From IMG/VR virus record IMGVR_UViG_3300045988_147305: a stretch of DNA of 64,000 nt; one strand, 5' to 3'. The position numbers and the translations under genes were made by a program. Numbering within the stretch: the stretch's first letter is position 1; every line of letters starts with the position of its first letter. The notes beneath the pieces were generated by a model. That model worked only from the letters and a program-made list of their open reading frames with translations. It ran no database searches and was not told the origin of the DNA. The stretch comes from a virus. Its lineage: Duplodnaviria; Heunggongvirae; Uroviricota; Caudoviricetes. Shown in pieces: positions 18,772-64,000 of the stretch.

Positions 18772-19412
18772 GTAACCGTTTTTACATGATGTGCTTGCGT
18801 GAAACTGTGGGTAATAACGCCTCATTCCATTGCCATAACGGCAATGGTTACAGTTCTGATATCGATCGCGCTCATGTTTACACGCTGGAAGAAGCCCAAA
18901 AAGCCTGGAATTGTGGGCGAGATATCGATCAGCCTGTTTGTGCCGATAGTGTGGATGCAATGGCTGTGTGGCACGTTGATTGCCAGTACATCCCTACAGA
19001 AAGCCTGATTGAGTCAGATTGCACTGCGTATGTGGCCTACAAAAAAGGTAGCTGGAACGGCAACGATGTTTACTGGCTTCAACACGGTGGATTGCCAACA
19101 GATGACTTCAGTAAAGCGACCATCTTTAGCGTCGCCAACAAAAACGAACCAGGAATAGTTTGGTTGCCATTTTCCATTGCTGATGCAGCAAAGCGCCGGA
19201 CGTTCAATATCAATAAATTTAACCGCAGAACAATGGTTCAGGGCGCAGGTTTGGTCATGCCTGACTGGTTGAAAAAGCAGAACAGAAGAAAGAAGTCGCG
19301 AAGCGGGAAGGTGCGTTGGAATTGTCCGCATTGCGGAAAAATCACCTGGCAGTACAGCCCATATGATTTTGAAGGCTGTCGTGATTACAACTGTGAAGGA
19401 TGGCGAGAATGA
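18768..19412 (+). CDS. Cys-rich hypothetical protein, ~214 aa
   Basis: GTG start overlapping upstream stop (GGAGGCAACCAGTGA); C-terminal CxxC...CxxC. Confidence 0.45.
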   Translation: MSNRFYMMCLRETVGNNASFHCHNGNGYSSDIDRAHVYTLEEAQKAWNCGRDIDQPVCADSVDAMAVWHVDCQYIPTESLIESDCTAYVAYKKGSWNGNDVYWLQHGGLPTDDFSKATIFSVANKNEPGIVWLPFSIADAAKRRTFNINKFNRRTMVQGAGLVMPDWLKKQNRRKKSRSGKVRWNCPHCGKITWQYSPYDFEGCRDYNCEGWRE

Positions 19413-20131
19413 CAATTGACTATCAGGTACTGCGTGAGGCGGCAGAAAAGGCAACACCAGACGAATGGGTCGCATTTATTTCGCCGGGTACTGGTACATA
19501 TGCGGTGCATACACCCGGTGATAAACGATGTGGAGACGTTATCAAATGGCCCGGCTTTGATGGACAGGAAAACGCAGAGAATAACGCTCGTTATGTTGCC
19601 GCGTTCAACCCAAAGGTTGCACTGGAGCTGCTTGGTGAAATTAAGCGCCTGGAGGACACAAATATTGATGCTATGTGTCGAATTGCAGAGCTTGAGACTA
19701 ATCTCGCGGCGCTGGTGGCGGAGAATGCGGGGCTTAAGGCCTTCAAAACCGCCGTTTATCAGCAGATGGGCGTCGGATGTGATGCTCCTGAATTCTCCAT
19801 TACGGTAGGTTTGAGTAACTTACGTCGTTTTGCTGACACACTCCACGCCATTGAGCGTGAGTTCTTTACCAAAGAGCTACCTGATGAAGAGCACGAAGGC
19901 GAAACATTCAATGAATGTCCACTTAGCTGGGGAATGAGCGTCGAACAGTACGTTTCCGAGTTTCGCAAATGCCTGGCTGAAGTGCGGGCGCAGGGATTGG
20001 AGATGTTTGCACAGAAATGTAACTCAAAATCCGAACAGTCATTTGCATCTGATATACGCGATAACTGGAAACTACTCGGTGAACATGCCACTGACTTTGC
20101 CGCAGAGCTTCGAAAAGGAGGCAACCAGTGA
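19409..20131 (+). CDS. Ead/Ea22-like family protein (from memory), paralog A
   Basis: N-terminal IDYQVLREAAEKATP...NARYVAAFNP..ALELLGEI plus coiled coil; ATGA coupling. Confidence 0.45.
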   Translation: MTIDYQVLREAAEKATPDEWVAFISPGTGTYAVHTPGDKRCGDVIKWPGFDGQENAENNARYVAAFNPKVALELLGEIKRLEDTNIDAMCRIAELETNLAALVAENAGLKAFKTAVYQQMGVGCDAPEFSITVGLSNLRRFADTLHAIEREFFTKELPDEEHEGETFNECPLSWGMSVEQYVSEFRKCLAEVRAQGLEMFAQKCNSKSEQSFASDIRDNWKLLGEHATDFAAELRKGGNQ

Positions 20132-20880
20132 GCAAGATTGACTATCAGGCACTGCGTGAGGCGGCAGAGCGTGCAATTCCGGCAATGGAACGCCTGTTAA
20201 TGTTGCCAGTTGATGATGATCTGATAAGTGAACAGGAACTTAAAGATTACGGCGTGGATATTGATGCGCTCAACGCCTTCAAATTTCTGACCGGACCAGA
20301 AACCGTGCTGGCGCTGCTGGATGAACGGGAAAGAAACCAGCAATACATAAAACGCCGCGATCAGGAGAACGAGGATATTGCGCTAACGGTAGGGAAGCTG
20401 AGAGTTGAGCTTGAGGAAGTAAAACAACACGCTGAAGAATTATCCGAAACCAAGGCTGTTCGTAACCAATGGCGGCCAGATATTTGCCCAATAACCGGAC
20501 GTGCATTTTTCATGTGGATTGAGCATCCAACATTGGGAAATGTGCCGACATATGGTGGCCCATTAGATAGTTACACCATTCCAACAAAGGACGGTGACGG
20601 TGAGTTTTCATGTGAGCGTTACGATCATGATTTTGGCGGTTGGGTAGAAAGCGAATGTCTTGGGGTATATCTGATTGATGATAGAGAACAATGCAGGGTC
20701 TACGAACTGGAGGAACGCGTTAAGGAACTGGATGCTCGGGAAATATCGCTCCCGGAACGTAGCAGCATGCTTCATCGAACAGATTTTCACGATGATTACC
20801 AAACGGTAATGGCATACAAAGTTTCTGAAGTCATCGCTGCAATCCGCGCCGCAGGCATTCGCATCAAAGGAGGTGAGTAA
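20128..20880 (+). CDS. Ead/Ea22-like family protein, paralog B
   Basis: N-terminal IDYQALREAAERA...; GTG start in repeated junction AAGGAGGCAACCAGTGAG. Confidence 0.45.
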   Translation: MSKIDYQALREAAERAIPAMERLLMLPVDDDLISEQELKDYGVDIDALNAFKFLTGPETVLALLDERERNQQYIKRRDQENEDIALTVGKLRVELEEVKQHAEELSETKAVRNQWRPDICPITGRAFFMWIEHPTLGNVPTYGGPLDSYTIPTKDGDGEFSCERYDHDFGGWVESECLGVYLIDDREQCRVYELEERVKELDAREISLPERSSMLHRTDFHDDYQTVMAYKVSEVIAAIRAAGIRIKGGE

Positions 20881-57207: not shown

Positions 57208-57533
57208 TTCCCACCTCCCTTTTTCACCAAACTTGTAAGAACATTCAGAATGCTATCGATATTCACTCGTTTCATCCCTGAAATCACCTCATGACCGTTA
57301 TTGCTGGCTATCGTTACCATTAAGTACGTAATTGATAACTCCCAGCCCTCGTGTTGCCCCAATAGGTACGCCACCGCGCCAGCTGTCACTGCAACAAAGA
57401 TCTCCGTAACCAATCCCAACAAATTGCCAGACTGGCGACCGTCTCGGACATCCATCAGGAACGTGCCTATCCCACCAATTACTGAAAGCAGGAGCGCAAT
57501 AGCAACTGGAGCTAATTCCTGTGTGTCAAGCAC
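57204..57533 (-). CDS. lydA: LydA-like holin, 109 aa
   Basis: Multiple predicted TM helices; charged C-terminus; first gene of the lyd-dar operon. Confidence 0.6.
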   Translation of the reverse strand: MLDTQELAPVAIALLLSVIGGIGTFLMDVRDGRQSGNLLGLVTEIFVAVTAGAVAYLLGQHEGWELSITYLMVTIASNNGHEVISGMKRVNIDSILNVLTSLVKKGGGK

Positions 57534-57607
57534 AAGTTCCCTCCTACGTTGTCAGGAGGTAATGGTATGCAAAGTAACTTCTCAACCGGTTATGTTGCAT
57601 AAGAGAC

Positions 57608-57871
57608 TTACCTATTCAACCGACTTTTGGAACCTTCAATAATAAGCCTGCTATTGGCGCTGAAAATAAGAACCATGCAGCTCTGAAGGCTTTCATTCAT
57701 ATCCTTATATTCCGCGAGATACATGCCAATAAAGCCAGCAAGTACGGCGGAAATACATTCGGCCAGCAATTTCTTGCATGAAGACTCGTAACGGTTTTCA
57801 CATAGCCCACTCAAATACGAATACACCCCACCAAGAAGGGATAACATCACGATATGTACATAAAATGTCAT
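57608..57871 (-). CDS. small holin-like membrane protein, 87 aa
   Basis: Two hydrophobic segments; upstream of lydA. Confidence 0.4.
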   Translation of the reverse strand: MTFYVHIVMLSLLGGVYSYLSGLCENRYESSCKKLLAECISAVLAGFIGMYLAEYKDMNESLQSCMVLIFSANSRLIIEGSKSRLNR

Positions 57872-57998
57872 TTTTTACCTATACAACAGTAAGTTGAACA
57901 ACATCTGAGAACGGTATGCACTTTGTGATTTCCACACACACTGGTTTTGTTAATTAAAACCTGTAGCTTGCAATAAATAACGATAGTGGGCAGAAAAT

Positions 57999-58183
57999 AT
58001 GCTAATAGGCTATGTACGCATATAGACAAATGAACAAAACACAGCTATGCAGTGAAAAGCACTTGAAAGCGCAGGATGTGAGCTAATTTTTGCGAATAAG
58101 GCGAGCAGCAAAAAGGCTGGGCACCCTGGGTTAAAAAAGGTTCTGCGTATGCTTTCCAGAGGTGATACCCTAGTCTCGGGCTA
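57999..58183 (+). pseudogene. remnant of a serine-invertase (Cin/Gin/Hin-like) N-terminus with in-frame stops
   Basis: Reads MLIGYVRI*TNEQNTAMQ*KALESAGCELIFANKASSKKAGHPGLKKVLRMLSRGDTLVSG*, colinear with the first ~60 residues of the cin product on the opposite strand. Confidence 0.6.
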
Positions 58184-58306
58184 GGGACAACATTTCGAGG
58201 ACAGTTTTCATTAGCGGTCAGCAGGCGCTAGATACATCGAATTGATGTGCCGCGCGATAAATGTACCTATTCTATCAAGATAAATTACACCGACGCGGCA
58301 TTAGAA

Positions 58307-58879
58307 TTACAGCTCAGATTGAGTTTGGCGCTTCTCTACAGGATGATAACGATAAATCGTCGATACACCGATATCGTAAATAATTGCCAACTGTTTCCTG
58401 CTGTAGCCATTTTCGATCAACCTCGCTATTTGCTCATGTTGTTCTTTTGTCAACTTCGGGCGACGTCCGCCAATGCGTCCCTGTTCGCGTGCAGCTGCCA
58501 GTCCGGCCAGTGTTCTCTCAACAATTAATTCACGTTCCATTTCTGCTAAAGCCCCCATGACGTGAAAAAAGAAACGCCCCATGGGTGTTGATGTGTCAAT
58601 ACTGTCTGTCAGACTACGGAAATTAACACCTTTTTCCCGCAACTCCTCTATAAGCGTGATAAGGTGTTTCATACTTCTGCCAAGCCTATCCAGCTTCCAG
58701 ACAACCAGCGTATCTCCTTCTGATAACGTTCTGAGCAGCTTTTTCAAGCCTGGTCTGGCTGACTTTGTTCCGCTTATTTTATCTTCAAAAATCAGTTCAC
58801 ATCCTGCGCAGTTCAGTGCATTTCTTTGTAAATCTGTGTTTTGGTCATTTGTTGACACACGAATGTAGCCAATTTGCAT
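58307..58879 (-). CDS. cin: Cin DNA invertase (serine recombinase)
   Basis: MQIGYIRVSTNDQNTDLQRNAL..., catalytic Ser in YIRVST, C-terminal HTH; ATG 58877-58879 preferred over track TTG 58888. Confidence 0.9.
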   Translation of the reverse strand: MQIGYIRVSTNDQNTDLQRNALNCAGCELIFEDKISGTKSARPGLKKLLRTLSEGDTLVVWKLDRLGRSMKHLITLIEELREKGVNFRSLTDSIDTSTPMGRFFFHVMGALAEMERELIVERTLAGLAAAREQGRIGGRRPKLTKEQHEQIARLIENGYSRKQLAIIYDIGVSTIYRYHPVEKRQTQSEL

Positions 58880-58933
58880 GAAAAACAACCTCTTTGTTTA
58901 GTTAAAAATACATCGTTGGTATAGGTAGGGATT

Positions 58934-58959
58934 AAGACTAAAACGTTGGTTTGGGAGAA
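58934..58959. other. cix-like crossover site (left) at the outer edge of a ~240-bp inverted repeat
   Basis: AAGACTAAAACG-TT-GGTTTGGGAGAA; inner half resembles the Gin/Cin half-site GGTTTTGGATAA. Confidence 0.5.
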
Positions 58960-59409
58960 GGCTCGGCGCTGCCCGTTGGTGTACCTGTTCCATGGCCCTC
59001 AGCCACACCTCCAACGGGGTGGCTGAAATGCAATGGTGCAGCATTTTCTTCTGAAAAGTACCCAAATCTGGCAAAGGTTTACCCAACGTTAAAATTACCT
59101 GATTTACGCGGTGAGTTTATCCGTGGTTGGGATGATGGGCGAGGTGTGGATGCGGGAAGGGTCATCTTAAGCATACAGGGGTGGTTAACAGGAAGTCATT
59201 ATCATAATATTCGGTCATGGGACGCGTGGGATAACACGGTATTGGTGCCAAATGACAGAGGGGGGGATAGTCTGTTGTCGACAGATAACGCCGTCCAAGA
59301 AGGAGCGATTAATGGTAAATTTACCAGTCAATACAGAACGGAGTTATCTGGGGGGAATGAAACCCGCCCACGTAACATTGCCTTCAATTATATTGTGAGA
59401 GCAGCATAA
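58951..59409 (+). CDS. alternative tail-fibre C-terminal segment (Sv'), no own start, currently inverted relative to S
   Basis: Begins within the cix repeat (GEGSALPVGVPVPWP...), ends ETRPRNIAFNYIVRAA like the S C-terminus. Confidence 0.7.
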   Translation: MGEGSALPVGVPVPWPSATPPTGWLKCNGAAFSSEKYPNLAKVYPTLKLPDLRGEFIRGWDDGRGVDAGRVILSIQGWLTGSHYHNIRSWDAWDNTVLVPNDRGGDSLLSTDNAVQEGAINGKFTSQYRTELSGGNETRPRNIAFNYIVRAA

Positions 59410-60025: not shown

Positions 60026-61576
60026 TTAATCCGCCCTCACAATATAATTAAATGCAATATTACGAGGGCGGGTTTCTAAGCCAGCAGTACCTAAATTAGC
60101 TACGGACTGTTTATATGTTTTAAAAGTTCCATAATTAGGGGCTGGCAATCCTGCATCGCTTGTGTTCCCCCATCTGATAACTCCCGTATTACCACTAGTA
60201 GCCCATGCCTCGTCAAAGTAGAAATTAATTGAGCTGTCAGTTGCTACGGTTGATTTTGACGGTAATCCGTGAGCATGATCCTCCGTTGCATATCCTTGCT
60301 CGCTTAAAATAGAGCGACCTGGATCAATCCCGCGCCCGTCATCCCAGCCACGAATGAACTCACCACGTAAATCAGGCAATTTATTTGTCGGGTAAGCCTT
60401 TGCCAGTTCCGGGTATTCTTCAGCAGAAAAAGCCGCACCGTTGCATTTCAGCCAGCCAGTAGGCGGTGTGGCTGAAGGCCACGGAACAGGCACACCAACG
60501 GGTAATGCCGAACCTTCTCCCAAACCAAGGTATGCGAGAAGACCAGCAACATCTTTTCCACTCAAATTAGTCAGCGTATTGTCCAGCGGTTGTTTGCCTG
60601 ACAGCGCATTAAGCATTGTTGTGGCAAAGTTCGGATCATTCCCCAGTGCCGCCGCCAGTTCATTCAATGTATCCAGTGCAGCAGGTGCAGAACCCACCAT
60701 TGCTGCAATCGCCGATTTCACAAAAGCCGTAGTGGCAATCTGTGTATTGTTGACCGACTGTGCCGCAGTCGGCGCTGTTGGCGTCCCGGTAAGTGCCGGA
60801 CTTGACAGTGACGCTTTTAGTTCCAGCGCATTGTTAATGGTGGTGCTGAATTTCGGGTCATTGTTTATGGCTGCGGCTATTTCTTTCAGCGTGTCCAGCG
60901 TGGCTGGCGCACCATTAATAAGGGCCTTCAGTGCCGCCTGAACAAACGCGGTGGTCGCAAGTTGCGTGGTATTATTCCCCGCCGCTGGCGTTGGTGCTTT
61001 GGGGGTTCCGGTAAACGTCGGGCTGGCTTTTGGCGCGTACTGTGAATGCGGGTCCAGTGCGGCAAGATGTTTTGCCATCAGATCATCCACGTACACCTTC
61101 AGCTCCAGTGCCTTGTCATCCACATACTTGCGGGTTGCCAGCACAACGGCAGGGTCGATTTTCAGGGTGATATTGTCCGTGCTGCTGGTTATCAGCACCA
61201 TGCGCACGGTCTGGGTGCGCCCGCTGCCTTCAGCCAGTCGCGGTTTATAGCTTTCCGGGCAGTTCCCCACGGCAATCAATGCCCCTGACTCATCAAACAG
61301 GCCCACTTCACGTATCCACCAACCGCCCTCGTTTTCAGGGATCACCTGTTCAGCAATAATCTGGCTGCTGTTCTGCGGGTCGATATAGAGCATATTCAGC
61401 GCAGCCCGGCGTTTCTCATTTACCAGTGCAGTCTGCTTTGCGTCCGGCGTCGGCAATACTCCGCCGCCATCGCCCACCGCCATATGGGTAATTTTTAAAG
61501 GCACACCGAGCGCGGCGGCGCTGGCAAGTTTCGCCGCGCCAATATCCGTCAGCAGGGTATAAAATTTTGTGCTCAT
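60026..61576 (-). CDS. S: tail fibre protein S (516 aa): P2 H/Mu S-like N-terminus plus variable tip
   Basis: N-terminus MSTKFYTLLTDIGAAKLA...MAVGDGGG parallels P2 gpH; C-terminal 166 aa follow the cix repeat and end RNIAFNYIVRAD. Confidence 0.8.
   Translation of the reverse strand: MSTKFYTLLTDIGAAKLASAAALGVPLKITHMAVGDGGGVLPTPDAKQTALVNEKRRAALNMLYIDPQNSSQIIAEQVIPENEGGWWIREVGLFDESGALIAVGNCPESYKPRLAEGSGRTQTVRMVLITSSTDNITLKIDPAVVLATRKYVDDKALELKVYVDDLMAKHLAALDPHSQYAPKASPTFTGTPKAPTPAAGNNTTQLATTAFVQAALKALINGAPATLDTLKEIAAAINNDPKFSTTINNALELKASLSSPALTGTPTAPTAAQSVNNTQIATTAFVKSAIAAMVGSAPAALDTLNELAAALGNDPNFATTMLNALSGKQPLDNTLTNLSGKDVAGLLAYLGLGEGSALPVGVPVPWPSATPPTGWLKCNGAAFSAEEYPELAKAYPTNKLPDLRGEFIRGWDDGRGIDPGRSILSEQGYATEDHAHGLPSKSTVATDSSINFYFDEAWATSGNTGVIRWGNTSDAGLPAPNYGTFKTYKQSVANLGTAGLETRPRNIAFNYIVRAD
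60515..60540. other. cix-like crossover site (right), inside S at the constant/variable junction
   Basis: Inverted copy of the left site (TTCTCCCAAACC-AA-GGTATGCGAGAA). Confidence 0.5.
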
Positions 61577-63425: not shown

Positions 63426-64000
63426 ACCGGGCCTCCGGTTGTATCGCCGCCTTTCAGGACGCCAGTATGCTGATGTGCATCAACCACAATCCCGTTAGAA
63501 CTCATCGCTCCGCCGCCCTGGGTAACGCCACCATTGATCACCACTTCGCTGTTAATGCGCGTGCGGTCAGCCTCCAGTACAAACTCACTGGTTTTCATGG
63601 TGATGTTATCAGCGGCCTCAATGACCATTGATTTGATGCCCCTGACATACCAGCGCCCGGTGGCGGGTTCATATTCAAACCAGCCACCGTCAGGATGTTC
63701 TGTCACGCAGGCGTCCGCCGACGTCGACGGTGGTGCGAACTGATTCGAATAGACAGCGGGCAGCGCAAAGGCAGTCTCCAGATTGCCGCCCAGACTCAGC
63801 AGCACCACCTGCTCACCTTCCGATGGTCGCCACCATGTGCGGGCATTCCCGGCACGCAGCGTCAGCCAACTGATCCAGTTAGTTTCAAGGTCGCCCGTTT
63901 TCACCCGGCAAAGCCAGTTCTCCCGGTCCACTTCGGTAACTACACCTGTGCGGATCAGGTTGGTGATAAGGCGCATGATTTCGGTTAATTGTGCGTTCAT
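63422..64000 (-). CDS. baseplate spike protein, P2 gpV-like; start codon is the last 3 nt of the window
   Basis: Matches P2 gpV (LIRTGVVTEVD...RTWWRPSEGEQVVLLSLGG...). Upstream region is outside the window. Confidence 0.7.
   Translation of the reverse strand: MNAQLTEIMRLITNLIRTGVVTEVDRENWLCRVKTGDLETNWISWLTLRAGNARTWWRPSEGEQVVLLSLGGNLETAFALPAVYSNQFAPPSTSADACVTEHPDGGWFEYEPATGRWYVRGIKSMVIEAADNITMKTSEFVLEADRTRINSEVVINGGVTQGGGAMSSNGIVVDAHQHTGVLKGGDTTGGPV

Follow-up and report, generated by a model that had tools for sequence, protein, structure and literature searches.

The short invertase-like sequence lying between lydC and the DNA invertase gene of this phage-plasmid is very probably a non-functional relic of its resident P1-type cin, a pseudogene stub left in place by a cassette replacement. 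The stretch of DNA analyzed here (the window, 64,000 nucleotides) is that of a P1-family phage-plasmid; over positions 57600-58320, its identity is 99.9% with phage vB_EcoM-813R1 and reaches 100% with plasmids such as pJIE250-3. The order of features is lydC on the minus strand, a 127-bp intergenic region, the cin stub on the plus strand, a 190-aa serine invertase on the minus strand, and an invertible segment of about 1.6 kb. The holin-like gene lydC (57608..57871), an open reading frame annotated as LydC in the 99.9%-identical vB_EcoM-813R1 and alignable with P1 lydC, is the backbone neighbour of cin in P1 and serves as the synteny anchor of the locus. The intergenic region (57872..57998, read on the plus strand) corresponds to the former cin promoter and ribosome-binding region, as delimited by a base-by-base alignment with P1 overlaid with the regulatory features of the P1 GenBank record, and the stub itself follows at 57999..58175 (plus strand), colinear with nt 1-177 (codons 1-59) of P1 cin. 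By megablast, window positions 57626-58175 align with P1 31289-31836, where lydC, the predicted cin promoters, and the initial 177 nt of cin are ordered and oriented as they are here.

The conceptual translation of 57999-58178 on the plus strand, MLIGYVRI*TNEQNTAMQ*KALESAGCELIFANKASSKKAGHPGLKKVLRMLSRGDTLV, matches the Pfam Resolvase domain (PF00239, E 4e-9). At the nucleotide level, the stub is identical to P1 cin at 158 of 177 positions (89.3%, gap-free, E 9.8e-64 by blastn), to P7 cin at 87.0% (E 5e-50 by megablast), and to D6 cin at 84.2%, whereas identity to the 5' end of the resident invertase gene is only 67.2% and that to the 5' ends of e14 pin and Mu gin only 64-67%. Chance similarity is ruled out by the E values (1e-63 by blastn and 5e-50 by megablast), as is duplication of the resident invertase gene by an identity of 67% to that gene versus 89% to P1 cin. 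The degenerate invertase 5' fragment of the preliminary description is therefore real, and alignment to the 5' regions of invertase genes, by which it was to be checked, gave a similarity far beyond chance, with P1 cin as the closest relative. The fragment also lies, as had been described, on the opposite strand to the intact invertase and converges with it, the gap being 131 bp from the end of the homology or 128 bp from codon 60. The cin homology terminates at 58175, leaving 59 colinear codons of the 186 in cin; the C-terminal helix-turn-helix domain is absent from the stub, and there is no invertase homology past 58175.

Two nonsense codons interrupt the homologous part, a TAG at 58023..58025 in place of the Ser-9 codon (TCA in P1, P7, and D6 cin) and a TGA at 58053..58055 in place of the Arg-19 codon (CGA in the intact cin genes), both on the plus strand. 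The three stops originally counted thus reduce to these two, in codons 9 and 19, the third (58182-58184) falling within the non-homologous junction at 58176-58187. Ser-9 is the catalytic serine in Gin, Cin, and Hin, and, judged from its sequence, the stub is a cin-lineage pseudogene rather than an invertase gene, which would need Ser-9 and an entire catalytic domain. Of the substitutions, 12 are unique to the stub (at positions where P1, P7, and D6 agree); they are spread 5:4:3 over codon positions 1:2:3, in contrast to a distribution of 10:0:38 when intact cin genes are compared with one another (Fisher p 0.0008). Moreover, the 59 stub codons hold 10 amino-acid changes relative to P1 Cin, against 2-5 between pairs of intact cin genes. 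Upstream, comparison of the intergenic region with P1 shows that the predicted P1cin -10 hexamer has changed from TAAAAT to TAAAAC and the ribosome-binding site from GAG to GGG; the P2cin region is poorly conserved. A sigma-70 consensus scan of 57800-58950, which is insensitive and also misses any min promoter, returned no promoter-like site, and an Rfam search of 57500-59000 gave no match even at E<=1. Terminator-like hairpins, weak ones only, occur at 58072-58059 and 58301-58287 on the minus strand. Most likely, the stub does nothing today. The PGAP annotation of pYJ4-b and further RefSeq plasmids includes lydC and the recombinase but gives no feature for the stub, not even a pseudogene call.

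The intact gene next to the stub (58307..58879, minus strand) encodes a 190-aa DNA invertase with Resolvase and HTH_7 domains. It had been named cin in the preliminary description, a name that does not hold: at the amino-acid level, the protein is 81.0% identical to e14 Pin, 74.2% to P1 Cin, and 72.1% to Mu Gin, and is thus of the Min/Pin type; its exact sequence is UniRef entry Q05517_ECOLX. In DNA sequence, the gene and the tail-fibre DNA next to it match pin-stfE-tfaE of e14. In line with this assignment, pJIE250-3 is reported to have an invertase in complement orientation that shares 98.5% identity with Min of p15B (PMC6906374); the 100% identity of pJIE250-3 with the window over 57600-58320 takes in only the last 14 nt of the invertase gene. 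The annotation of vB_EcoM-813R1 divides the invertase between two CDSs, Hin1 and Hin2. The resident invertase gene and the tail-fibre gene share one direction of transcription, with the invertase gene positioned downstream of the invertible segment. The min product is 100% identical at the amino-acid level to that of the D6-like plasmid pEc-050-T5-MAC_3. In nucleotides, the two min genes share about 99% identity, compared with only about 80-82% for the spacer and the stub, which suggests that the invertase gene was recently exchanged between the two backbones. The 3' flank of the incoming invertase gene (58188..58306, minus strand), which includes the second of the weak hairpins, is shared at about 82% with the same D6-like plasmid, its remaining matches being confined to P1-like plasmids. 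No context was found for a donor of the 58176-58306 spacer, the invertases of chromosomal prophages matching only from the stop codon inwards.

Crossover sites were sought over all 64,000 positions with a half-site matrix derived from four sites, P1 cixL and cixR plus two in the window. The two best-scoring matches in the window are a mix/cix-like site at 58934..58959, adjoining the 5' end of the invertase gene (score 19.5, second best), and a site at 60515..60540 (22.1, best), which is overlapped by a tail-fibre gene on the minus strand (60026-61576). These two sites are in inverted orientation and bound the invertible tail-fibre segment of about 1.6 kb; the first lies at the outer end of a pair of inverted repeats (58943-59172 and 60302-60531; 230 nt, 80% complementary). 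Within the window, which ends at 64000 and to which the search applies, only these two crossover sites were found, giving seemingly a single invertible segment. Weak cix-like matches (scores 10-14) at 19739, 19793, and 20440, inside two similar open reading frames (19400-20131 and 20128-20880), are probably due to chance.

A comparison of P1 cin with related loci by blastn identified five stub-bearing lineages, the window included, each with a 5' piece of cin of a different length. The shortest, in phi456 (3372-3423), retains cin nt 1-52 and is followed by fixed tail-fibre genes and no invertase, as is the stub of pEC21Z083-80K (2862-3062), which retains cin nt 1-212. In pRHB17-C14_2, a stub at 4401-4637 (cin nt 1-236), with a nonsense codon and a 1-nt insertion, is followed by a serine acetyltransferase gene. 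The longest, in D6-like pEc-050-T5-MAC_3 (2503-2798; cin nt 1-307), is 78.8% identical to P1 cin with several small deletions and, like the 177-nt stub of the window, runs into the min cassette, with the same min gene. Truncated cin genes have also been reported in pSvP1 and pTZ20_1P (PMC6906374). Because stub length is variable and some stubs have no accompanying invertase, these sequences are better explained as scars of replacement than as a conserved element. The window stub is present at >=99% identity in 135 plasmid records, a conservation that would be expected from recent common ancestry and with which constraint would also be formally compatible. The fragment is not absent from related genomes: 147 PLSDB plasmids carry a junction of the window type, and a counterpart exists in p15B by quoted coordinates (see below). 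Among 5426 complete E. coli genomes, 172 contain the spacer together with the invertase 3' end (58179-58500).

At the junction itself, the 12 nt at 58176..58187 have a homolog neither in P1 nor in the D6-like plasmid, and the 3' flank shared with the latter begins at window position 58188. These 12 nt could be filler inserted at an illegitimate joint, or they could stem from a later deletion. Sharing of both the spacer start at 58188 and a G22 to A substitution would fit a single event for the 177-nt and 307-nt stubs, followed by deletion, and their P1-type and D6-type 5' ends would fit either an origin in situ or later recombination between backbones.

Taken together, these features would be accounted for by an ancestor with the P1 layout of lydC, cin, C segment, and S, in which everything rightward of cin codon 60 would have been replaced by a tail-fibre host-range cassette of the Mu/e14 layout. 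This incoming cassette would have comprised a tail-fibre gene, an invertible segment, and a co-directional invertase gene, its left joint being formed inside cin by illegitimate recombination and its right joint in the tail-fibre gene; both the order of events and the illegitimate nature of the left joint are what we infer from the arrangement. The Mu/e14 layout of the new invertase gene explains why it converges on the 5' end of the old cin. Decay of the truncated gene is seen in the sequence itself, in the conversion of Ser-9 to a stop codon, a second stop at codon 19, substitutions spread evenly over codon positions, and alteration of the predicted -10 hexamer and the ribosome-binding site. 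Present-day inversion would depend on the min gene, the enhancer-equivalent inside min, and the crossover sites at 58934 and 60515.

It has to be considered whether the stub could still serve as a second, auxiliary Fis-dependent enhancer for Min inversion, the nearer crossover site being about 0.75-0.9 kb away. The enhancers of the Gin, Hin, and Cin systems act independently of distance and orientation, so that a weak residual effect of Fis binding is conceivable, and the stub spans the whole equivalent of the P1 recombinational enhancer, 58017..58088 being the positional homolog of P1 31678-31749 (cin nt 19-90, by P1 GenBank coordinates), within the first ~100 nt of the coding sequence. The positions of the two 15-bp Fis cores, cin nt 22-36 and 71-85, were inferred from an alignment of cin, min, pin, and gin and from the presence of G/C at +/-7, the G at +/-7 being the one base contact that is critical for Fis (PMC4784862). 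The inferred core II of the stub (58069-58083, GCGCAGGATGTGAGC) is identical to that of P1 at 15/15 positions. However, the inferred core I (58020-58034) reads ATATAGACAAATGAA in the stub compared with GTATCAACAAATGAA in P1, having lost the -7 G and two more bases; the P1-type core I already lacks the +7 C, and that of the stub is left without any bounding G/C, so that, on these inferred cores, the stub does not present two bounded cores as an enhancer would. Nor is the enhancer-equivalent conserved in excess of its surroundings, with 10/72 positions differing from P1 compared with 9/105 elsewhere in the stub (Fisher p 0.32). In the sister stub of the D6-like plasmid, the -7 G is also lost and a 2-bp deletion between the Fis cores alters their spacing; stubs persist in elements with no invertase; and the resident min carries its own internal enhancer-equivalent, both cores of which are G- and C-bounded. 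The suggestion in the preliminary description that the remnant retains enhancer function is thus unlikely to be correct; we infer that the stub would have lost this activity, and an auxiliary role in Min inversion appears very improbable.

A different role would be one in expression rather than inversion, the 5' part of cin being kept as a control sequence of the divergent lydC or as the origin of antisense RNA running convergently into the 3' end of min. In all five lineages, no less than cin nt 1-52 is retained, together with the entire intergenic region between the lysis gene and cin, a pattern that selection on lydC control sequences, and not chance alone, could explain, although five lineages are a small sample, and P7 has an annotated C1 operator for lydC located 5-21 nt upstream of the cin ATG. 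Unlike in P7, no C1 operator was found near lydC or the stub when the window was scanned, the matches lying elsewhere. The absence of a promoter-like site in the sigma-70 scan, the damage to the predicted P1cin -10 hexamer, and the position of the stub, which begins 128 nt upstream of the lydC start codon, also speak against such a role, which we hold to be very unlikely. With respect to C1 itself, the operator consensus ATTGCTCTAATAAATTT has 14 matches (<=3 mismatches) in the window, between 1268 and 47976, versus 0.2 expected by chance, which would fit a P1-type immunity circuit. More broadly, there is only a slight chance that the stub is not wholly inert, with core II and the lydC-proximal sequence acting as a Fis-bound boundary or control element for lydC or as a weak auxiliary enhancer arm that would tune Min inversion.

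The presence of two invertase-related sequences 131 bp apart could also be taken as a trace of an ancestral arrangement in which both genes were once functional side by side. This is, however, extremely unlikely: the stub occupies the position that the single cin holds in P1, P7, and D6, it is cut off at the very edge of the imported cassette, and none of the five stub-bearing lineages (the window, phi456, pEC21Z083-80K, pRHB17-C14_2, and pEc-050-T5-MAC_3) has an intact cin beside min. Because the stub lies at the single-cin locus and belongs to the cin lineage (89% versus 67%), it represents a truncated resident cin and not a second invertase. Consequently, the proposal that it records an ancestral multi-invertase arrangement stands insofar as an earlier arrangement is recorded, but this arrangement was one of a single resident cin at its own locus.

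Retention of a recombination site, also raised in the preliminary description, finds no support in the crossover-site scans: no cix/mix-like site was detected in the stub, the best scores being 7.9 within 57872-58306 (at 57928, upstream of the stub) and 7.7 for a match overlapping the stub and junction (at 58165), compared with 19.5 and 22.1 for the real sites, and no AAACC-NN-GGTTT core was found inside 57999-58183 at <=2 mismatches. A palindrome, CCCTAG (58168-58173) N7 CTAGGG (58181-58186), is located exactly at the cin homology breakpoint, but the idea that it or the stub is a quasi-cix recombination site, or marks an invertase-mediated flip of the invertase region, is almost certainly wrong, since, even though the junction sequence ATACCCTAGTCTCGGGCTAGGGACAA and the 57928 match rank within the top ~20 of 64,000 positions, both score far below the real sites, the junction lacks the AAACC..GGTTT core, breakpoints differ in the other lineages, and the 3' part that cin has lost does not occur elsewhere in the window region, in which min (at 70%) is the only other invertase-like sequence, which points to replacement and not inversion.

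As a replacement scar of a resident cin, the stub is a clean molecular fossil, minor in itself, and raises no new question on inversion mechanisms. It illustrates that P1-family phage-plasmids exchange tail-fibre host-range cassettes as units, often with the left joint inside cin, and it can be used as a lineage marker. For annotation, the appropriate labels are cin pseudogene for the stub and min/pin-type, not cin, for its neighbour.

The cin genes of P1, P7, and D6 are homologous to the stub over nt 1-177 at 84-89%, and the upstream region and the neighbouring gene are as in P1; on the other hand, these genes are intact and adjoined by cixL, whereas the stub has neither cixL nor the helix-turn-helix domain, ends after codon 59, and contains two stops. 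The layout of the resident invertase is the same as that of Mu Gin and e14 Pin and opposite to that of P1, P7, and D6. The other stubs of P1-like and D6-like elements resemble that of the window in being 5' pieces of cin that remained beside lysis genes once the tail-fibre region had been exchanged or rearranged, all of those examined being disrupted, but differ in breakpoint and downstream content, and only the D6-like plasmid shares both the min cassette and its 3' flank. The closest counterpart is p15B of E. coli 15T-, in which a cin-homologous interval lies between lydC and min and extends to about P1 31832-31836, as in the window. A note in the P1 GenBank record gives p15B X62121 7147..7408 as 89% identical, with 1 gap, to P1 31570..31832, which comprises the cin upstream region and the first 173 nt of cin; over the same P1 interval, the window is 90.5% identical, also with 1 gap. 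A further note matches p15B 6463..6533 to the P1 enhancer. A single offset (window plus p15B position equal to 65318) converts all four coordinates, with 7408 and 7147 mapping to 57910 and 58171, in the region of the stub, and 6533 and 6463 to 58785 and 58855, on the enhancer-equivalent of the resident invertase, and the spacing of 614 bp between the stub and the min enhancer is the same to the base in p15B according to the coordinates quoted in the P1 record. Mapped in this way, through the coordinates quoted in GenBank, p15B has the same stub, breakpoint, and lydC flank and an inverted min at the same distance. Sandmeier et al. are said to have noted a truncated cin-like 5' region in p15B, reportedly under the name "pseudo-cin", and to have regarded Min as the result of a substitution of a Cin-like system by DNA related to e14 Pin. 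The Min region of p15B is reported to have six crossover sites, compared with the two found in the window, which seems to have a reduced invertible region. By the coordinates in the P1 GenBank notes, the stub of the window is the already known scar of the p15B type.
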